Assembly: GCA_964016885.1 (NCBI GenBank)
Contig: OZ024741.1
Location: 29,264,001 to 29,328,000, forward strand
Source: Eledone cirrhosa
Lineage: Eukaryota
Reading direction: 5' to 3'
DNA: 64,000 nucleotides
This document shows positions 2,976-62,629 of the stretch, in pieces. The notes below the pieces were generated by a model. The model was not told where the DNA came from. It made no database searches and was given only the letters and a program-made list of their open reading frames with translations. Each line of letters begins with the position of its first letter. Position 1 is the stretch's first letter. The position numbers and the translations under genes were made by a program.

Positions 2976-3023
<48 letters not shown>

Positions 3024-3058
3024 ATGAAGGAGTAACCAATCGTCCTTGTTATTTTATT

Positions 3059-3117
<59 letters not shown>

Positions 3118-3334
3118 GTTAAAAATGTACATCTACATATGCATACTGAAATACTAGTGTGTATATGAATACACACACGTATACATATGTAGGTGTACCA
3201 AGTCTTTCACTGGTCGCTTTACAGTGAGCGGCCCAGCTATTCTGTATGTAAACACACAGACAAACCGGTTTTTAGAGTCATACTGGTTTTTCGGGGGAAC
3301 ACCTTCCCCCTATTCTCCAGAAAGCCAGACAAGG

Positions 3335-3379
3335 AATATTGAACTAGTTTCGTTGTTGTTACAACTCATCAGCAATATT
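3335..3379 (-). ncRNA. Type I hammerhead ribozyme (468-unit family)
   Basis: Reverse complement of 4108-4152. Confidence 0.9.
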
Positions 3380-4107
3380 TACCTATCTACCGGCCTTTCT
3401 GGAGAATTGTAAAAGCACATATCGTTATATGCTTTTTCTATGAAAATTAGTAGTGGGCAGACCAATTTGCATAGAGTGTGAGTACGCACCGGTTCAGCGG
3501 AGACGATAAAAACAAATAACGAAACGAAATTAAATTTCGTTTCGTTTGTAACTCACTTTTGTATGACTGACGCTTAAACAATTAAGTTAAAAATGTACAT
3601 CTACATATGCATACTGAAATACTAGTGTGTATATGAATACACACACGTATACATATGTAGGTGTACCAAGTCTTTCACTGGTCGCTTTACAGTGAGCGGC
3701 CCAGCTATTCTGTATGTAAACACACAGTCAAACTGGTTTTTAGAGTCATACTGGTTTGTCTGTGTGTTTACATACAGAATAGCTGGGCCGCTCACTGTAA
3801 AGCGACCAGTGAAAGACTTGGTACACCTACATATGTATACGTGTGTGTATTCATATACACACTAGTATTTCAGTATGCATATGTAGATGTACATTTTTAA
3901 CTTAATTGTTTAAGCGTCAGTCATACAAAAGTGAGTTACAAACGAAACGAAATTTAATTTCGTTTCGTTATTTGTTTTTATCGTCTCCGCTGAACCGGTG
4001 CGTACTCACACTCTATGCAAATTAGTCTGCCCACTACTAATTTTCATAGAAAAAGCATATAGCGATATGTGCTTTTACAATTCTCCAGAAAGGCCGGTAG
4101 ATAGGTA

Positions 4108-4152
4108 AATATTGCTGATGAGTTGTAACAACAACGAAACTAGTTCAATATT
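4108..4152 (+). ncRNA. Type I hammerhead ribozyme (468-unit family)
   Basis: AATATTG-CTGATGA-GTTGT aaca ACAAC-GAAA-CTAG-TT^-CAATATT: 7-bp stem I, canonical core, 5-bp stem II, palindromic CTAG in place of stem III. Confidence 0.9.
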
Positions 4153-4575
4153 CCTTGTCTGGCTTTCTGGAAAATAGGGGGAAGGTGTTCCCCCGAAAAA
4201 CCAGTATGACTCTAAAAACCGGTTTGTCTGTGTGTTTACATACAGAATAGCTGGGCCGCTCACTGTAAAGCGACCAGTGAAAGACTTGGTACACCTACAT
4301 ATGTATACGTGTGTGTATTCATATACACACTAGTATTTCAGTATGCATATGTAGATGTACATTTTTAACTTAATTGTTTAAGCGTCAGTCATACAAAAGT
4401 GAGTTACAAACGAAACGAAATTTAATTTCGTTTCGTTATTTGTTTTTATCGTCTCCGCTGAACCGGTGCGTACTCACACTCTATGCAAATTAGTCTGCCC
4501 ACTACTAATTTTCATAGAAAAAGCATATAACGATATGTGCTTTTACAATTCTCCAGAAAGGCCGGTAGATAGGTA

Positions 4576-4620
4576 AATATTGCTGATGAGTTGTAACAAC
4601 AACGAAACTAGTTCAATATT
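4576..4620 (+). ncRNA. Type I hammerhead ribozyme (468-unit family)
   Basis: Identical to 4108-4152, 468 nt downstream. Confidence 0.9.
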
Positions 4621-4925
4621 CCTTGTCTGGCTTTCTGGAGAATAGGGGGAAGGTGTTCCCCCGAAAAACCAGTATGACTCTAAAAAAGGTTTGTCTGTGT
4701 GTTTACATACAGAATAGCTGGGCCGCTCACTGTAAAGCGACCAGTGAAAGACTTGGTACACCTACATATGTATACGTGTGTGTATTCATATACACACTAG
4801 TATTTCAGTATGCATATGTAGATGTACATTTTTAACTTAATTGTTTAAGCGTCAGTCATACAAAAGTGAGTTACAAACGAAACGAAATTTAATTTCGTTT
4901 CGTTATTTGTTTTTATATATATATA

Positions 4926-5370
4926 TAGTGAAATAAAACGATTGGTTACTCCTTCATTACGTTTATTGGTTGGTGACGCGCGTTTCGTCACTGATCAGAT
5001 CAAGGGTCGATCTGTATCGATCTGACCCGACTTTGTAATCCGCGGCTCGTCATACCCTTGTAATGGTAATAGAAAAAAAAAATTATTATTATTTTTTTTT
5101 ATTTAGTTTTTTTCCATTATCATTACAAGGGGTCTGACGAGCCGCGGGTTACAGAGTCGGGTCAGATCGATACAGATCGAACCTTGAGCTGATCAGTGGC
5201 GAAACACGCGTCACCTACCAATAAACGTAAGAAGGAGTAACCAATCGTCCTTGTTATTTTATTTCACTATAATACACTCTGTCTAGCTCTACACCTCGAT
5301 ACCGAAGTGAACCTAAACATCGAGTGCTCACCCTGGTGAACCTACAGTAACTCCAAGTTACACTCCCTAG
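4926..5370. mobile_element. Fold-back non-autonomous PLE-like element with HHR
   Basis: Inverted arms ~4926-5075 and ~5110-5270, unique tail to 5370, (TA)n on both sides; 5227-5270 is also duplicated at 3021-3063. Confidence 0.75.
5130..5216 (+). ncRNA. Type I hammerhead with extended stem/loop II
   Basis: GGGT-CTGACGA-GCCGC..50 nt..GTGGC-GAAA-CACGCG-TC^-ACCT; the minus-arm copy has palindromic CGCGCG but a C3A lesion. Confidence 0.7.
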
Positions 5371-5396: not shown

Positions 5397-5619
5397 GAGT
5401 TTTCCAAGATATGACAACATGAATGGACCTGTTATTTTTATCTAAAGACATTTTTTCCAGTTGCAACCCGCCCGTCCCCTCAATCTATCTTATTTCTCAT
5501 TATTTCTTCTGATGAAGGACTAGTGTCCGAAACGTTAAGACCCTCTTCCTGCTATATCAAGCGTTAACCTAATACATTCCTTCCATATACTGTACCGATT
5601 ATGTTATTTCTGTTTACCT

Positions 5620-7294: not shown

Positions 7295-7492
7295 AAAAGG
7301 TAAGCAGAAATACCAACACAATCGGTAGGTATATACTAGGTTAACGGTTGATATAGCAGAAAGAGGGTCTTAACGTTTTGGACCCTAGTCCTTCATCAGA
7401 AGAAAGAATGAGAAATAAAATAGATTGAGGGGACGGGCGGGATGGAATTGGAAAAAAATGTCTTCAGATAAAATAACAGGTCCATTCATGTT
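7292..7492 (-). mobile_element. Second copy of the 5397 element, HHR with a G12A lesion
   Basis: Reverse-complement similarity to 5410-5620; reads ctgatgaaggactagggtccaaaacgttaaga. Confidence 0.7.
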
Positions 7493-18209: not shown

Positions 18210-18240
<31 letters not shown>

Positions 18241-19834
18241 CTTAGAACAGCAACTCTATCAAGAAATAGAGGAAAAATATAGTACTGACTTTAGAAAGTA
18301 CATTGAAAAATCTTGGAAGAGATACCTTGACGACTGTTTTATCATCTGGACAGAATCTCTAGATACTCTGGATGAGTTCAATATCCTCCTGAATAACCTA
18401 CACCCATCTCCCCAATTCACAAAAGAGATGAGTAGTACCAAATTACCATTCCTAGATATAATGATAATCAAAAACGACACCACCATTACCACGGATATAT
18501 ATTATAAACACACAGACACCCATCAATATCTGAATTTTAAGTCGTGCCATCCACCTCATACAAAACGCAACTTCCCATACTGCCTAGCCAGAAGAATTTG
18601 TACCATTGTAGAAGATACGAATACCAGGTACAAACGCCTAACAGAACTAAGAGAATTTTTGCTCAAACAAAAATACCCATCTCTACTTATAGAAAATGGC
18701 ATACAGCGGGCTATAAAAATACCTATACAACAACTTAGGACAACCCAAGGAAGAGAAACCAAGAACTGATCATACCATATCACCAGAATATCTTCAACAC
18801 GGCCAAAGCAAACCTACCGATTATTGCTCAAAATAATGAATTAAAAGGCTTAATCACAGATCGATCTTTGACTCTTAGTAAAAGACAGCCGAAAATTTTG
18901 AAGCAATCACTAACAAAAGCAAAGTTTGACCTTAACAACAAAGACCAATCATTCACTGTATCTAAATGCAATGATAGTCGATGTGGCACATCTCAATCCA
19001 TACACGCCGGTCAATATATGAAAGCAAAAACTGGAAAAATATTCCCAAATGCAAATATGAACTGCAAAAGCAGAAATCTAATTTACTGCATTAAATACCC
19101 GAATTGTGAAGAACTATATGTATTTCAAACAGGAAATGCACTATCGGAACGTGCACGGGTACACCGACAGCAAATCAGAGACCCAAATGTCCGTCAGATA
19201 CCCCTAAGTAACCATCTAGCAACATGTGGTCAGGGAATATTTATAATATTCCCATTCTACAAATTACACAGCCCAAGTGAAATCAAGAGAAAATTCAAAG
19301 AAAAGAATTTTATTGATAAGATCAAACCCAAGCTAAATGAACAATAATAATGGGGTATCCTACTATGACTATGACTACGACCACTAACAACAACAGCAAT
19401 AATAATAATAATAAAAGTGATGTTGATGGTGATGATTACTAGAAAATGGTATTTTCATCATTTCTAAAAATAGCAAAACAATTGATGCTTTGGATAGGGT
19501 CAATTAGTAGTCGTTAGACATGCTCAACCATCCGCAATCCAGTGAAACTACACACCGATTGGTCGAAATACAGTTTGCAAGATTTAGCATTCTGGAGCCA
19601 CTTTTCACTGTATATAAGGCACAAAATTTACCCATCTGATTACAGTTGAAAATTGCAAACTTGACTGTCACCACACAATATGAACCTGAAGATTACGAAA
19701 GCATGAAAGTACTTGTTCAATTAACACTTAACATTTAATATTCTACCACACTATTTCATTCTAATACCATTATAAATTTTAAAGGATTGTAAATAAAACG
19801 AGTAAATCAGACAAAGTTGGAATTCCTTTTATTA
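18241..19834 (+). pseudogene. 5'-truncated Penelope-like element (family 1, Neptune-like), ORF broken
   Basis: Highly similar to 27690-29374; RYLDD motif and GIY-YIG region present; stop/deletion near 18770; (TA)n on both sides. Confidence 0.9.
19681..19719 (+). ncRNA. PLE 3' hammerhead with a stem II mismatch
   Basis: TGAAC-CTGAAGA-tTAC gaaa GCAt-GAAA-GTAC-TT^-GTTCA. Confidence 0.75.
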
Positions 19835-27381: not shown

Positions 27382-27602
27382 AGTGGTCGTAGTCATAGTG
27401 ATAGTAGAAGTAATACCCCTAAGCGTTATTATTGTTCATTTACCTTGGGTTTAAATTTATCAATAACATTATTTTATTTGATTTTTCTCTTGATCTCACT
27501 TGGGCTGTGTAATTTGTAGAATGGGAATATTATAAATATTCCCTGACCACATGTTGCTAGATGGTTACTTAGGGGTATCTGACGGACATTTGGGTCTCTG
27601 AT

Positions 27603-28817
27603 TTGTTGACGGTGTATTACATCCAAATTAGAGGCATAGCGATGGGAACGAAGTTTGCTCCCGTTTACGCGAACTCTGTAATGGGATACTTGGAACAACA
27701 ACTCTACCAAGAAATAGAGGAAAAATATAGTACTGACTTTAGAAAGTACATTGAAAAATCTTGGAAGAGATACCTTGACGACTGTTTCATCATCTGGACA
27801 GAATCTCTAGATATTCTGGATGAGTTCAATATCCTCCTGAATAACCTACACCCATCTCTCCAATTCACAAAAGAGATGAGTAGGACCAAATTACCATTCC
27901 TAGATATAATGATAATCAAAAACGACACCACCATTACCACGGATATATATTATAAACACACAGACACCCATCAATATCTGAATTTTAAGTCGTGCCATCC
28001 ACCTCATACAAAACGCAACATCCCATACTGCCTAGCCAGAAGAATTTGTACCATTGTAGAAGATACGAATACCAGGTACAAACGCCTAACAGAACTAAGA
28101 GTATTTTTGCTCAAACCAAAATACCCATCTCTACTTATAGAAAATGGCATACAGCGGGCTACAAAAATACCTATACAACAACTTAGGACAACCCAAGGAA
28201 GAAGAAACCAAGAACTGGTCATACCATTTATAATGGCACACAACCCATGTCACCAGAATATCTTCAACACGGCCAAAGCAAACCTACAGATCATTGCTCA
28301 AAGTAATGAATTAAAAGGCTTAATTACAGATCGATCTTTGACTCTTAGTAAAAGACAGCCAAAAAATTTGAAGCAATTACTAACAAAAGCAAAATTTGAC
28401 CTTAACAACAAAGACCAATCATTCACTCTATCTAAATGCAATGATAGTCGATGCGGCACATGTCAATCCATACACGCCGGTCAATATATGAAAACAAAAA
28501 CTGGAAAAATATTCCTAAATGCAAATATGAACTGCAAAAGCAGAAATCTAATTTACTGCATTAAATGCCCGAATTGTGAAGAACTATATTTCGGTCAAAC
28601 TGGAAATGCACTATCGGAACGTGCACGGGTACACTCTCAACAAATCAGAGACCCAAATGTCCGTCAGATACCCCTAAGTAACCATCTAGCAACATGTGGT
28701 CAGGGAATATTTATAATATTCCCATTCTACAAATTACACAGCCCAAGTGAAATCAAGAGAAAAATCAAAGAAAATAATTTTATTGATAAATTCAAACCCA
28801 AGCTAAATGAACAATAA
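27603..28817 (+). CDS. Penelope-type RT (C-terminal half) + Cys-rich linker + GIY-YIG endonuclease, N-terminally truncated
   Basis: GIAMGT and RYLDD motifs, thumb DIYYKHTDTHQYL, linker KCNDSRCGTC, endonuclease LIYCIKCPNCEELYFGQT..R...H...H; the listed start is an artefact of the inversion junction. Confidence 0.9.
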   Translation: MLTVYYIQIRGIAMGTKFAPVYANSVMGYLEQQLYQEIEEKYSTDFRKYIEKSWKRYLDDCFIIWTESLDILDEFNILLNNLHPSLQFTKEMSRTKLPFLDIMIIKNDTTITTDIYYKHTDTHQYLNFKSCHPPHTKRNIPYCLARRICTIVEDTNTRYKRLTELRVFLLKPKYPSLLIENGIQRATKIPIQQLRTTQGRRNQELVIPFIMAHNPCHQNIFNTAKANLQIIAQSNELKGLITDRSLTLSKRQPKNLKQLLTKAKFDLNNKDQSFTLSKCNDSRCGTCQSIHAGQYMKTKTGKIFLNANMNCKSRNLIYCIKCPNCEELYFGQTGNALSERARVHSQQIRDPNVRQIPLSNHLATCGQGIFIIFPFYKLHSPSEIKRKIKENNFIDKFKPKLNEQ

Positions 28818-38360: not shown

Positions 38361-40151
38361 AAAAAAAGATGAAATCGAAAATGCAACTGGAGTTTTATTT
38401 AAAAAAATATATATATATTTATTTGGTTCCTTTACCGGCTTCGCAGTTCTTCTGCTTTTCAAAAGTAGAGTTGAGATGGAGGGTCTGTGGTTTTTCAACA
38501 TCTGGTTGATCTTTGAATGTTAAATGGGAGTTGATCTTGGCTGTATTCCATTGTGAATTGGATGTGGTTATTGATGCCGTTTATTAAGTTTTTGAAATCC
38601 TTCAGTTGGTCGAGTGTGTGGGACCAAAGAATGAGACAATCATCCAAGTAGCGTTTCCAATTCTCTGATGAATATTTGTGGAAGTTCAATCCGTATTTTG
38701 ATTTGGACTGTTCATATATCTGGACTTCTAAGTATGCCATGTCTAAGTTGGCATAAGTTGGAGCGGCTTTTGTACCCATCGCAGTCCCCGATATTTGCTT
38801 GTAAGTACTGCCATCGAAATTTAAAAAAAGTTGTTCTGTAAGATGAATTTTAATCCCTCGGTGATGAAGCTTTTTTCTATTCTGCCAGGTATCTCATTGG
38901 GATATTTTTCTTTGGTCCCACACACTCGACCAACTGAAGGATTTCAAAAACTTAATAAACGGCATCAATAACCACATCCAATTCACAATGGAATACAGCC
39001 AAGATCAACTCCCATTTCTGGACATCCTAATCTTAAAAAAAGACACAAATATTGAAACTGACATACACTACAAACCAACAGATTCCAAACAATACCTGCT
39101 ATTCACCTCCAACCATCCAAAGCACACGAAGACGAACATTCCTTTTAACCTAGCAAGAAGAATTTGCACAATTATCTCCAATTATGAAAGCGAAATAAAA
39201 GACTTCAAGAATTAAAGGAAATTCTACTCGAAAGAGAGTACCCACCATTACTGATAAATAATGGAATAGAAAGGGCTAAAGCAATAGGCATTGATGAATT
39301 ACGAAAACAGAAACAAATTCAAGGTACGTCCAATATTCTATCATATATCTCAACACACAACCCAAGAAATGCGGAAGCTTACAACACTATTCACAAGAAC
39401 ATCCAACTACTAAAACAAGACCCAAGAATGAAAAAAGACCTTGAAACACACAAAATAATCAAAAGCAAAAGACAACCGAAATCACTGAAAACATTACCCC
39501 CCAATGCCAAATTACCTACCACAAACCCACAACCAACTGTCAAAAAATGTGGTCGCTCTAATTGTGGAAACTGCACTCACCTCATTGAAGGCAACACATA
39601 TACATTTAAACCAGGACAAGATTTTGCTGTAAAAAATCACTTCACTTGCTCATCAAAAAATCTAATTTATGTAAATCTAATAAATGTAAAGATTGCAATG
39701 AAGATTATATAGGAGAAACTAAACTCACACTCAGAAACAGAATGACAGTTCATCGCCAACAATTACGAGATCCAACCACGAGACAGATACCACTAAGCGC
39801 ACATCTAGACATATGCGCAAGTAATAAGACACCAAAATTCCAAGTCTTCCCATTTTACCTTTGCGCTAACAATACAACAGAACAAATACGAATAAATAAG
39901 GAAAATATGTTTATTAAAAAATATAGACCAGCATTAAATATGGTTTAATATACATTATGTCAACACCATAACATGCTAACCATCCAAACAGACACACACA
40001 CACACACATAACACCTGCAACTTTAGAAAATAAAAACCCAACTAAATAAACCTTAACATACGTTTCGGCTGACAATACAACAGAACAAATACGAATAAGT
40101 AAGGAAAATATGTTCATTCAAAAATATTCCTACACACACACAATCATTTTA

Positions 40152-50973: not shown

Positions 50974-53200
50974 CGGAGGAAATGTGGTAAGGAACCAGGT
51001 GGACCATAACGCACCAAAGTACTCAATGCTTAGGGTAGTAGAGTGGGTAATAGGAACGAGTAGGACCCCGACGGCTGAGCTCAAGCCGTTTCGACGGCTA
51101 ATTCTGTCCACAATTATTGGTTTTGTCAGAGTGGACTAACACATTTTTTGAGGAATTTAGGTTTGAAATTGTGTTCTTGAGATTTACAAGGTGCTCTTGT
51201 CCTTTGCAAGGGTATCTCTTGAATTTAAGATTTTTTATAATTTTAGTTAACTCTTCCTCGAATTGCACTAGATTTTTGTTGGAAGGAGGATTTCTTCTAG
51301 AATTAAATAGATGATCTATTTAATTCCTCAAAAAATGTTTTATTCCACTCTGACAAAACCAATAATTTATATGGTATTTCCAAGGATAATTATAACAACC
51401 TTATCCTAAAGGAACTTAGGAAAAAATATGGTAAAACCAACCATGATAATTTAGAATACATAAACTTTAAAGCCTCTGAGATCATGTCAAAACTTGGCAT
51501 TGAAAAAAAGACCGAACCATTCCTCCCAAGAACTCCGAGGATAAATCTCAAGGATCACAAAAACAATTTTCGCACTGAATTCATTCCTCCATTTCGCCTT
51601 CACTTCTCAATAATGCTCTATCTTTCGCACTTAAATATTCTGACATCACCACAGATGAACTTCACATCATTCTCACCGCACGTAAAACCATCCTAGATTT
51701 CAACAATGAATATTGGACCAGAGCCGATACCTCTAACAACTTCGACATCATAACGGGAGCATCCGATTCATCCCAATTGACAGATTTAATTGGTATCTTT
51801 ATTTTGAACTCTTTGAGTCGGAAAATTCCTCAACTTCGCGGTGGAATTTATCGTGACGATAGACTCTTTACTATCTTAAATTGCAACATAGTTAACCTTA
51901 ATATTATTAAGAACAATATGCGTAATCTCTTTAACCAACATAACCTAAAAATTGAATTTGATAACAACATCAAACTAGCTAATTTCATGGATGTATCTCT
52001 TAATCTTGACACTGGCCTATATTACCCTTACCATAAAAACAATGAGAACCTAAATTATGTTAATTTTAAATCTAACCATCCTACTAATATCAAGAATGCT
52101 ATAGTTAATAATATTGGAAAAAGAATATCTAACCTATCTTCTAATAAAAACATCTTTGATGCTAACGCCAATTACTATAATAACGCGCTTTCTAAAGCTG
52201 GCTATCCTGATAAAATCAAATATGGTAAAGAAACAAATTCTAGAAGATCTTACAGTAGAATAATTAATCATGATCATTCCAATAACTTTAATAAAAGACC
52301 TAGATACAAAAACATAATCTGGTATAATGCTCCTTTCTCCATCTCTATTAATAATAATATTCCTAAATTATTCTTTAGTGCCTTAAATAAATGCTTCCCT
52401 CCCTCACATATCTATAGTAAAATATTTAAAAAACACACTATAACATTTTCCTATTCTACATCCTCTAACATTTCCAACATTATCTCTAAACACAACAATA
52501 AAATACTAAATACTAAATCTCTTCCTTCCAACACTGAATATCATAATAATAGTAATAGTACTCCCGACGTCATTGTAAACCCTAAGCTAATTTCTGCAAA
52601 CCCAAATACAACGTCAAACACAACTTCGCTAAATGTTCTTAATCCCATTCTAAATCAAGAAACTATTATTCCTATCGCAAATAACTTCTCCAATCCAATT
52701 CCTTCTATAGATAACACTAGGTCACTCGTTAATAATCTCTCTAATCGCAATTGCAATTGCCCTGTTAAAAATAAATGTCCTCTCAACAACCATTGTCTTG
52801 ATAAAAACTTAATTTACGAATCTAAAGTTATAACTGACACTAATTCCTTCACCTATTTTGGCTCCACTTCGACCTCCTTTAAAGCTCGTCTTTATAACCA
52901 TCATTCGTCTTTTAAATACAAACTTAAAAGAACCAACACGGCTCTCTCAGAACTCATATGGTCCTTGAAAGACAAACATATTAAATATAGCATATTTTGG
53001 AAGAAGGTTTCTTCTGCGTCATACTTGAACAGTTCTCTATCCAAGATTTGCAATCTCTGTCTAAATGAAAGTTTTTATTATACATTATATAATACTTGTT
53101 ACTCATTCTATATCGCTCCTATTTATCACTTCCCTTTCTTCTCTTTTTCTTTTAATGTCTAACCCCTAATCTGTACCTTTTCTCACTGTTATAGAAACAA
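50971..53200 (+). mobile_element. Penelope-like element family 3 (Nematis-like) with inverted 5' segments
   Basis: Inverted tail 50971-51110; inversion 51113-51160 versus 51319-51366; upstream RT piece INLKDHKNNF. Confidence 0.8.
51777..53162 (+). pseudogene. PLE RT (GIYRDD) + thumb + GIY-YIG, truncated
   Basis: GGIYRDD, NFMDVSLNL, YVNFKSNHP, CNCPVKNKCPLNNHCL, LIYESKV..YFGST..FKARLYNH. Confidence 0.85.
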
Positions 53201-57829: not shown

Positions 57830-60800
57830 GTCTAAATATTTGGGGCAACACACACATACACACAAAGAAATATGTAAATGTCTATCTACACATACACACA
57901 CACACATACACACACATACATACACACACACACATACACACACACATACACGCACAGAAATATGTAGATGTCTAACTACACACACACATACACATACATA
58001 CACACATACACACAAAGAAATATGTAGATGTCTAAGTACACACATACATACACATACAAACGCACACATACACACAAAGAAATATGTAGATGGCTAACTA
58101 CACACACACATACACATACATACACACATACACACAAAGAAATATGTAGATATCTAACTACACACAAAGAAATATGTAGATGTCTAACTACACACACACA
58201 TACACATACACACAAAGATATATGTAGATGTCTAACTACACACGCACATACACATACACACAAAGAAATATGTAGATATCTAACTACACACAAAGATATA
58301 TGTAGATGACTAACTACACACACACATACACATACACACAAAGATATATGTAGATGGCTAACTACACACACACATACACATACACACAAAGATATATGTA
58401 GATGTCTAACTACACACACACATACACATACACACAAAGAAATATGTAGATATCTAACTACACACAAAGATATATGTAGATGTCTAACTACACACACACA
58501 AACACACACACACAAAGATATATGTAGATGTCTAACTACACACACACATACACATACACACAAAGATATATGTAGATGTCTAACTACACACACACATACA
58601 CACACACACAAAGATATATGTAGATGGCTAACTACACACACACATACACACACACACAAAGATATATGTAGATGTCTAACTACACACACACATACACAAA
58701 CACACAAAGATATATGTAGATGGCTAACTACACACACACATACACATACACACAAAGATATATGTAGATATCTAACTACACACAAAGATATATGTAGATG
58801 GCTAACTACACACACACATACACATACACACAAAGATATATGTAGATGGCTAACTACACACACACATACACATACACACAAAGATATATGTAGATATCTA
58901 ACTACACACAAAGATATATGTAGATGGCTAACTACACACACACATACACATACACTCAAAGATATATGTAGATGGCTAACTACACACACACATACACATA
59001 CACACAAAGATATATGTAGATGGCTAACTACACACACACATACACATACACACAAAGATATATGTAGATATCTAACTACACACAAAGATATATGTAGATG
59101 GCTAACTACACACACACATACACATACACACAAAGATATATGTAGATGGCTAACTACACACACACATACACATACACACAAAGATATATGTAGATGGCTA
59201 ACTACACACACACATACACATACACACAAAGATATATGTAGATATCTAACTACACACAAAGATATATGTAGATGGCTAACTACACACACACATACACATA
59301 CACACAAAGATATATGTAGATGGCTAACTACACACACACATACACATACGCACAAAGATATATGTAGATGGCTAACTACACACACACATACACATACACA
59401 CAAAGATATATGTAGATATCTAACTACACACAAAGATATATGTAGATGGCTAACTACACACACACATACACATACACACAAAGATATATGTAGATGGCTA
59501 ACTACACACACACATACACATACACACAAAGATATATGTAGATGGCTAACTACACACACACATACACACACACACAAAGATATATGTAGATGGCTAACTA
59601 CACACACACATACACATACACACAAAGATATATGTAGATGTCTAACTACACACGCACATACACATACACACAAAGAAATATGTAGATATCTAACTACACA
59701 CAAAGATATATGTAGATGACTAACTACACACACACATACACATACACACAAAGATATATGTAGATGGCTAACTACACACACACATACACATACACACAAA
59801 GATATATGTAGATGTCTAACTACACACACACATACACATACACACAAAGAAATATGTAGATATCTAACTACACACAAAGATATATGTAGATGTCTAACTA
59901 CACACACACAAACACACACACACAAAGATATATGCAGATGTCTAACTACACACACACATACACATACACACAAAGATATATGTAGATGTCTAACTACACA
60001 CACACATACACACACACACAAAGATATATGTAGATGGCTAACTACACACACACATACACACACACACAAAGATATATGTAGATGTCTAACTACACACACA
60101 CATACACAAACACACAAAGATATATGTAGATGGCTAACTACACACACACATACACATACACACAAAGATATATGTAGATATCTAACTACACACAAAGATA
60201 TATGTAGATGGCTAACTACACACACACATACACATACACACAAAGATATATGTAGATGGCTAACTACACACACACATACACATACACACAAAGATATATG
60301 TAGATATCTAACTACACACAAAGATATATGTAGATGGCTAACTACACACACACATACACATACACTCAAAGATATATGTAGATGGCTAACTACACACACA
60401 CATACACATACACACAAAGATATATGTAGATGGCTAACTACACACACACATACACATACACACAAAGATATATGTAGATATCTAACTACACACAAAGATA
60501 TATGTAGATGGCTAACTACACACACACATACACATACACACAAAGATATATGTAGATGGCTAACTACACACACACATACACATACACACAAAGATATATG
60601 TAGATGGCTAACTACACACACACATACACATACACACAAAGATATATGTAGATATCTAACTACACACAAAGATATATGTAGATGGCTAACTACACACACA
60701 CATACACATACACACAAAGATATATGTAGATGGCTAACTACACACACACATACACATACGCACAAAGATATATGTAGATGGCTAACTACACACACACATA

Positions 60801-61457
60801 CACATACACACAAAGATATATGTAGATATCTAACTACACACAAAGATATATGTAGATGGCTAACTACACACACACATACACATACACACAAAGATATATG
60901 TAGATGGCTAACTACACACACACATACACATACACACAAAGATATATGTAGATGGCTAACTACACACACACATACACACACACACAAAGATATATGTAGA
61001 TGGCTAACTACACACACACATACACATACACACAAAGATATATGTAGATGTCTAACTACACACACACATACACATACACACAAAGATATATGTAGGTGGC
61101 TAACTACACACACACATACACATACACACAAAGATATATGTAGATATCTAAATACACACAAAGATATATGTAGATATCTAACTACACACAAAGATATATG
61201 TAGATGGCTAACTACACACACACATACACACACACACAAAGATATATGTAGATGGCTAACTACACACACACATACACACACACACAAAGATATATGTAGA
61301 TGGCTAACTACACACACACATACACACACACACAAAGATATATGTAGATGTCTAACTACACACACACATACACATACACACAAAGATATATGTAGGTGTC
61401 TAAATGCACACACATACACATACACACACACAGCCACACACACATACACACACATAC
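57830..61457. repeat. Compound minisatellite of 48-bp and 30-bp units with a 1410-bp higher-order repeat
   Basis: Unit aaagatatatgtagatggctaact + CA-rich spacer; rare variants recur 1410 nt apart. Confidence 0.92.
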
Positions 61458-62629
61458 AGAGTTAGTGCGTCAGTAATTTGTTGGTAGTTGCCTGGTTCAT
61501 TTTTGGCTTTGTAACAGGAGTTATGAGATGAGTTATGGAAGCTGAATGAATGAAAGGTTTGTTCGTTGAGTCCATAGCAAATGAGCGAAGTGTATCTCAG
61601 CGAGTCGAGATAATTGTGGTTGCGAAGTCTTGCTATGCTCGATGAAACCAGTAGTTGCAGTCTCTTGTAGAGGGTGATGTGATGATATTGATATGTATTT
61701 ATAAATGAATCAGAGACTGTTAATTTTTATGTTTTTGTTGGTTGCATGATTTACTCCCAAATCCTCCGCAGCAGAACATAAATATATTATTTTTATAGAT
61801 GATACACATATGTTTGTGATGTGTTAGTTTGGTTGGATTATCTGTGTTAATGTAGAATGTAAATTCTGCTAAACTTAGTAGAAGTATGTATTCGTAGCCA
61901 CTAACTTGGAAGCAAACGGGACTCTGTGGCTGAGCGAAAAGGCAGAGTGTACTGTCTGGGGTCAAAATGTTTTGTATATATAATGACTAAGTCTCCAGAA
62001 GCTTAAAACGGATCACCTTTCTTTTTAAATAAAGACAGTAAATCAAACGACGATAATGTGAGTTCAAATAAAAGAACTGGTATCTAAATTAAGATGAAAG
62101 AGTTTAAAGGGCAGTGTGTGTGGTGATATGAGACTATTTGCAAACATGAGAAAAATCTCATTGAGGTTTCGCTACATTAGTTTCCCGCCCATATCGATGC
62201 AGGAACAGAGTTCTATTATAGAAGAGGTTGCGAAATCGGATTGCTAACGTACGCTTTGTGGGATCGTGACCTTTCTGGCTTCATGTAATCGAACCTTGAG
62301 TTGTTCTTTCAAGTTGAAAAAACCAATGTCTATTCCTCAATTTGTCGGGAAGATAATACTAGGTTGATATCGAAGTAAAGCTATTGGCTTTTGTGTGCAA
62401 TTCCAAGTAGAATGTCCATCTGCAACTGTTTGAGTTGCACGCCGAGTCTCGGGGCTTGCATTCTGAAAGCTATTCCGCTATATCAACACTAGTTGTGAGT
62501 GAAAGGGACAGAACTATCTCGTTATATCACACATAAACCAATTTGCATATCTATGTTTTGTGTGAAAATACAATTTGGAAATGTTTGTGGCTATGTGTTA
62601 GTGCATGTGCGCACATGTGTATACACATA

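Follow-up and report, generated by a model that had tools for sequence, protein, structure and literature searches.

What kind of element occupies positions 3112 to 4916 of the window, the 64,000-nucleotide stretch of Eledone cirrhosa DNA analysed here, and how was it inserted? The window is AT-rich animal DNA with microsatellites throughout, and the element consists of two outward-pointing arms of a single 468-nt non-coding unit, diverging from a junction near 3755. The short-end arm (3112..3760, minus strand; 649 nt or 1.39 units, unit positions 50 to 230) and the tail-end arm (3750..4916, plus strand; 1,167 nt or 2.49 units, unit positions 73 to 304) both join (TA)n at their 3' ends, on the left within flank sequence (3065..3111) and on the right at a short run (4917..4927) where an older repeat next to the element also ends. 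A 'tail' of about 70 nt (unit 231–304; 4843..4916, plus strand) with a 13-bp hairpin at 4876–4904 separates the two fixed ends. The arms are more than 99% alike, the plus arm differing from the unit at 4146–4613 by four substitutions and one 1-nt deletion and the minus arm by five substitutions. The head-to-head junction (3728..3760) comprises a 20-nt loop and an 11-nt arm overlap, carries two changes (3728 and 3734) resembling the nearby unit 51–66 repeat, and likely arose by a fold-back join. An earlier note on this DNA had placed the element at 3111..4914; the element itself stands, with its ends corrected to 3112 and 4916 (a matter of TA ambiguity).

Three type I hammerhead ribozymes are predicted in the element, at 4108..4152 (plus strand; cut after 4145), 4576..4620 (plus strand; cut after 4613) and 3335..3379 (minus strand, in the inverted arm; cut after 3342), each with a palindromic stem III (ACTAGT) and a GUU cut site. 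They are identical, reading stem I AATATTG, core CTGATGA, a 5-bp stem II, GAAA, CTAG and TT^CAATATT, with the caret marking the cut. The plus-strand cores at 4115 and 4583 place the predicted cuts 468 nt apart, confirming the tandem unit that the earlier note had described, and a minus-strand core at 3372 accounts for the third hammerhead it had placed on the opposite strand. All three match the Rfam model HH9 (E 1.4e-7) with 38.6 bits, short of the gathering score of 52; no match in the Rfam scan of the window reached a gathering score, and matches to miRNA families were rejected as generic hairpin matches. The unit's hammerhead has U at position 17, which we take to be a slow cleavage site. 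When two 60-nt hammerhead segments were cofolded, they formed a double hammerhead through the ACUAGU palindrome (−22.2 versus 2 × −9.4), in agreement with the dimeric stem III that had been suggested, and a lone segment folded with its core paired to CUAG. Metazoan type I hammerheads have been described as acting in such a double form (PMC4209133).

The 468-nt monomer between the two plus-strand cuts (4146..4613) contains no ATG frame longer than 20 aa on either strand (19 aa sense and 20 aa antisense in the circular unit), in line with the claim that it lacks a credible ORF. It is predicted to adopt a branched fold, with a circular minimum free energy of −156.4 kcal/mol compared with −97.7 ± 5.9 for 60 dinucleotide shuffles (z −10), a comparison that the earlier note had proposed as a check, and all four of the self-complementary blocks it had named pair in this structure. 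The 5' stem I extension of this unit carries a private G27A change (4172). Thirteen monomers gave a consensus fold in which 98.7% of cells are paired, a level reached by none of 500 shuffles, and its covariation score exceeded those of all 500. Six of its 153 pairs are changed on both sides, including a U-A to A-U change in hammerhead stem II, compared with 3.9 in shuffles, and 52 of the 500 shuffles match this figure for the 13 related sequences. We consider the covariation modest and the structure probably under selection. Among young genomic copies the ribozyme core is no better conserved than the remainder (7/1,372 versus 462/61,923). Independent variants are about 2.5 times more frequent at unit positions 1–60 (window 4146–4205), just 3' of the cut, than in other parts of the unit (7.9 versus 2.6–3.3 per 1,000 bases), for which a mutation hotspot, or mistakes made by reverse transcriptase along the long stem I, might account.

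The element belongs to a young, dispersed family of about two thousand copies. Genome-wide, exact patterns matched 2,205 junctions of the tail end with (TA)n and, for the ribozyme core, 5,212 sites (0 for either control); a search with the monomer returned 780 candidates, with full-length matches at 92–100% identity among the 40 that were scored. These matches and the near-identical arms support the recent insertion proposed earlier. Subfamilies occur at about 99, 94 and 87% identity and keep the same two ends (compared over 85–99% identity). A sister family (L023:4450-5050, L142–L154 and L162–L177) has a 420–442-nt unit about 60% identical to the 468-nt unit, with a GUA or GUU cut; it retains the hammerhead type, the tail hairpin, a downstream motif and a similar predicted fold, and it ends at two points homologous to those of the 468-nt unit. 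A motif pattern common to both families had 15,595 matches, compared with 14 for its control. One sister-family locus (L153) alternates units in an X-Y-X-Y order, one type having a stem I mismatch, which would fit either a dimeric circle or block duplication. The 468-nt unit was also partly covered in sequencing runs of two other organisms.

Hammerhead repeats of several further types are present in the genome. The element is itself inserted in the (TA)n at the end of an older head-to-head repeat (4925–5370, with a fragment at 3021–3064) that had 3,559 candidates in the genome search. One end of this neighbour is short and lies at (TA)n, the other is longer by about 100 nt, and each of its arms holds CTGACGA, a long stem II and GAAAC-GCGC-GTC; it may be a further type I hammerhead family that is laid out in the same way, and its fold is no better than those of shuffles. 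The 3021–3064 fragment matches the family form of the neighbour, whose near arm has a private deletion, and may represent an inverted target duplication. Elsewhere in the window, an inverted pair (5451–5584 and 7324–7457, 90% alike) belongs to a further repeat that has a minimal hammerhead (CTGATGA at 5509, GAAACGTT) and was also seen in L147 and L160. At 57976–61465, the short CA-rich unit of a long tandem array leaves reading frames open on both strands.

The arms of the family have fixed ends. We surveyed 72 stretches, comprising 39 found by whole-monomer similarity (and so biased to long arms), 32 pattern hits on contig C1 and the window, which yielded 127 arms of at least 28 nt, or 125 after removal of two cut by a stretch edge. 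Overall, 117 of the 125 end at fixed points, 49 at unit positions 230–236 and 68 at 301–304 (64 of the latter exactly at 304), with eight ending elsewhere. Because arm ends are fixed at two points of the unit, start points are not circularly permuted among the copies, as the earlier note had suggested they might be. Wherever a locus has one long arm of each type, the arms are head-to-head (44 of 44). Two tail ends were seen in a single stretch, which contains two distinct insertions, and a pair of short ends at one complex locus. The first 30 tail ends on contig C1, a set without the bias to long arms, gave the same picture: among the 29 informative cases, the remaining one having been taken from the wrong side, an inverted short-end arm was present in 25 (19 long and six of 5–17 nt, with one of only 5 nt being weak), four had no short-end arm and none had a second tail end. 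In run contigs (AT)n follows the 304 end. Both ends fall at predicted single-stranded, U/A-rich spots flanking a hairpin. The inner junctions vary, 13 of 44 being near-palindromic (within 40 nt) compared with 7.6 expected (P 0.03), and the lengths of the two arms are uncorrelated (Spearman −0.03, n 44). The idea of one concatemeric cDNA with an incidental fold-back is not supported, since inversion is the rule of the family and each arm has its own fixed 3' end at (TA)n; fold-back likely acts only where two cDNAs are joined mid-element.

A tail at one end, an inverted 5'-truncated copy and (TA)n flanks are what would be expected of mobilization by a Penelope-like element (PLE). PLEs are known to carry a 'tail' and an inverted 5' copy (PMC8557442, PMC3846280), and in vitro work on a PLE from Anolis traced the tail to two internal reverse transcriptase start sites and found that the enzyme, a predicted dimer, cuts both strands of AT-rich DNA (PMC11167929). 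Penelope-type twin priming is likely because the ends described here match this combination of a tail, an inverted 5' copy and two internal starts, with each target strand apparently primed at one of the two sites. We consider mobilization by a PLE enzyme of some kind very likely.

Candidate partners exist in the same genome, which encodes two intact GIY-YIG PLE families with 775-aa open frames in many copies. In one of them, inverted copies occur, the ends lie at (TA)n, and the hammerhead is built like that of the 468-nt unit, with U17 and a palindromic stem III of four bases. Both probably belong to the Neptune clade, an assignment based on the Cys motif before the endonuclease rather than on a tree. 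Both families (L126–L129 and L157–L158) are young, and in them an upstream frame overlaps the 775-aa RT-endonuclease frame, in the −1 frame at a conserved T-TTT-TTA heptamer; we rejected this two-frame layout as a novelty, since a frameshifted ORF1 is already drawn in Fig. 1 of PMC8557442. Within the window, broken GIY-YIG PLE copies occur at 18212–19347, 27573–28817 and 38495–39948, and a 527-aa RT-like frame at 51579–53162, part of which is rich in asparagine, resembles by eye an element of the Penelope/Poseidon type and has no Pfam match. Neither intact family, including its pLTR, shares sequence with the unit or the sister family beyond TA-rich noise. Nine loci with variant tail motifs and 20 with variant hammerhead cores proved to be sister-family copies or chance matches, none of them joined to a PLE ORF, so that no autonomous element sharing unit sequence was found among the two PLE families and these 29 loci.

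What template did the enzyme copy? The cut site is traversed by 99 of 117 arms, and by 24 of the 30 unbiased tail arms. A cut linear monomer would allow at most 304 or 235 nt, yet most arms pass the cut, which leaves a circle or an uncut multimer as the template. We rejected the cut linear monomer, which should also produce a pile-up of 5' ends at the cut, whereas only two ends fall at positions 1–5 in 195 passes; within 12 nt of the cut, arm 5' ends show a mild excess (11 versus 5.7, P 0.03).

Sequence variants were compared at 40 young loci (positions 44–55, 84–85 and 108–110 and four misaligned stretches were dropped). At 18 of these loci, 24 variants are present in every covering unit; 20 span both arms and nine are private to their locus (eight of these across both arms). 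When units were shuffled among loci, the mean number of locus-wide variants was 0.43 and the maximum in 500 shuffles was four. The other variants comprise 173 singletons and 15 that are partly shared. Four unit-specific single-site variants are shared across arms, all in mirror register about the junction, which would fit fold-back copying or later conversion, and no pair of loci has two unit-specific variants in common. At one locus, all 18 full units are identical over both arms and carry their own haplotype, differing from another long locus by six substitutions and an indel. The sharing of variants across whole loci suggests that a single unit was read repeatedly, probably as a circle, and given PLE mobilization we regard a circular template as rather likely. 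The earlier proposal of a template read around a circle has indirect support from these locus-wide variants.

Not all of the length of the arrays needs to come from copying RNA. Period-2, period-3 and mosaic variant patterns confined to one arm show later duplication at the DNA level, which could also homogenize a source array; we accordingly rejected array length as proof of a rolling circle. Arrays of 14 to more than 30 units (G000:C1:5738400-5752700, 14044600-14050900, 30831600-30840900 and 56387300-56398000) range from fully identical to mosaic and appear as retrozyme insertions turning satellite-like.

Tandem hammerhead units, ends at 230–236 and 304 that occur once each per insertion, and (TA)n on both sides are the observations from which we build a mechanism. 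We think it probable that a Penelope-like RT-endonuclease acting in trans primed both cut (TA)n strands on RNA, probably a monomeric circle, and, jointly with that full mechanism, that 3112–4916 is one insertion of a high-copy non-coding hammerhead repeat, that is, a non-LTR retrozyme. Multimeric transcripts would self-cleave as double hammerheads after GUU, releasing a 468-nt monomer whose lone ribozyme is predicted to fold into an inactive form, and a host ligase would close the monomer, by analogy with published retrozymes. A dimeric GIY-YIG/RT enzyme would then bind the conserved 223–384 region and nick both (TA)n strands, with one cDNA starting in the loop at 230–235 and the other at 304, each a U/A-rich single-stranded spot. 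From there, each cDNA would extend backwards past the cut site, covering about 0.1 to 3 rounds before it stops at a variable point, and microhomology or fold-back would then join the two into head-to-head arms. Periodic variants show that some arrays were later enlarged at the DNA level. More tentatively, and at slightly less than even odds, the process could be twin-primed rolling-circle retrotransposition, in which a PLE dimer primes each strand of a cut (TA)n site at its own fixed site on one small ribozyme-made circle and both reverse transcriptases travel around it.

The same twin priming might instead have used an uncut, linear multimeric transcript, with the homogeneity of units coming from DNA-level expansion of the source array and the ribozyme being slow or serving another end. 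We consider this unlikely, while noting that the Anolis PLE enzyme used and preferred uncut RNA and did not need the ribozyme (PMC11167929), and that eight of nine Xenopus (frog) retrozyme dimers failed to cleave in vitro (bioRxiv 2026.07.22.740005). The periodic and mosaic arrays also favor it, and the four cross-arm unit-specific variants, being offset by one unit, fit priming on neighbouring units. Against it, sharing within arms is rare in short arrays (the 15 partly shared variants versus 173 singletons), private locus-wide variants outnumber cross-arm unit-specific ones (nine versus four, the latter all in mirror register), no two loci inherited the same unit-specific variants, and the hammerhead has been kept, with compensatory change across subfamilies and retention in the sister family.

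Closest to the earlier note, and to the antisense self-priming idea for PLE inversions (PMC3846280), would be a single cDNA that starts at 304, goes round the RNA, folds back and copies itself, with the endonuclease or a bound protein fixing the second end at 230–235. The excess of near-palindromic junctions, which includes the 3112–4916 locus, and the four mirrored variants are consistent with such a history, but most junctions are far from palindromic, unit-specific variants are mostly unmirrored, at 16 of 44 loci the short-end arm exceeds the tail-end arm in length, and the two starts that bound the tail have been measured in vitro (PMC11167929); we judge it improbable. Still more improbable is a DNA-level element (foldback, MITE-like or satellite) or an assembly artifact in which the hammerhead is incidental. 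Large inverted repeats, TA flanks and array expansion would suit it, as would the fact that the junction of the 3112–4916 element is not bridged by any contig of runs X1–X4, although this proves nothing either way. An artifact, which the earlier note had named as a possible refutation, is unlikely because the same layout recurs at dozens of loci with different junctions, and a DNA element is disfavored by two ends that differ in sequence, variable inner junctions, the existence of 5'-truncated single arms and the compensatory change in the ribozyme.

Twin priming by L1 offers a useful comparison with the preferred reading, in which a PLE enzyme primes both strands. In L1, both target strands prime on RNA and produce a 5' inversion; the place where the second primer anneals varies, and there is no overlap between the arms. 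Priming by both target strands is the shared feature, but the family described here has a fixed second start and two arms that run repeatedly over the same unit.

How, then, should the family be classified? Every tandem unit carries a type I hammerhead, with two or more in succession, all scoring below the Rfam gathering score. The monomer is highly self-paired (z −10; six compensated pairs), the family is dispersed and multi-copy, and the short non-coding unit apparently has no LTR-type PBS/PPT layout, the whole element being tandem 468-nt units. Plant LTR retrozymes have type III hammerheads in their LTRs and a 4-bp target duplication; here the topology is type I and no LTR pair surrounds an internal region. 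An autonomous PLE would have an ORF encoding RT and GIY-YIG domains, whereas the unit has no ORF and no PLE ORF is attached to the arms examined. Judged by these sequence features, the family is a non-LTR retrozyme and neither an autonomous PLE nor an LTR retrozyme, and the tandem hammerhead units in a multi-copy family agree with the retrozyme-like nature proposed earlier.

Metazoan non-LTR retrozymes, for which circles have been demonstrated and PLE mobilization proposed (Cervera and de la Pena 2020, PMC7229834), are described as non-coding tandem units, a few hundred bases long, with a type I hammerhead each (PMC7229834; Li et al., bioRxiv 10.64898/2026.07.22.740005), a short palindromic stem III, low GC, a strong predicted fold, thousands of copies and PLEs in the same genome (PMC7229834), all of which apply here. 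The unit is longer than the 170–400 nt given in PMC7229834 but within the range of 51–972 in bioRxiv 10.64898/2026.07.22.740005. Circles were shown for those retrozymes, whereas the circle here is predicted from genomic sequence; insertions here consist of two arms placed head-to-head, each with its own fixed end in (TA)n, a structure that we did not find described in those two sources; and no pLTR homologue of the unit was found in the two intact PLE families compared. With EN+ PLEs (Poseidon of Anolis, PMC11167929; Neptune and Naiad types, PMC8557442) the family shares an inverted 5'-truncated copy, a tail at one end, an AT-rich or (TA)n target and a hammerhead with palindromic stem III (PMC4209133). 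Unlike them, it has no ORF, its tail is about 70 nt rather than 30–40, the whole element is the repeat unit, and a near-obligate pairing of short with tail ends can be counted at thousands of loci. MRC1 and other non-autonomous elements of Chlamys are likewise PLE passengers with multicopy head-to-tail insertions, but as described in PMC8557442 they resemble their autonomous partner at the 3' end and most are without hammerheads.

Animal retrozyme circles are known, while the inserting enzyme and the circle as template have been proposals based on co-occurrence and pLTR likeness (PMC7229834; bioRxiv 2026.07.22.740005). In the literature covered, mostly the main texts of open-access papers and preprints, we found no description of fixed two-site, head-to-head retrozyme ends. 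What is new here is the insertion footprint, consisting of two fixed ends, one per side, together with a single-unit bottleneck. The family bears the PLE end signature at thousands of young insertions, with two reverse transcriptase start sites used one per end, and the intact PLE families in the same genome mean that insertion can be tested directly in vitro. As a tool, too, a short circular RNA able to guide a target-primed integrase would be of interest. If twin-primed rolling-circle retrotransposition is true, every insertion would be a head-to-head pair of concatemers of one molecule, the PLE tail would reflect one start site per target strand, and the thousands of copies would be a genomic record of retrozyme circles as transposition intermediates.
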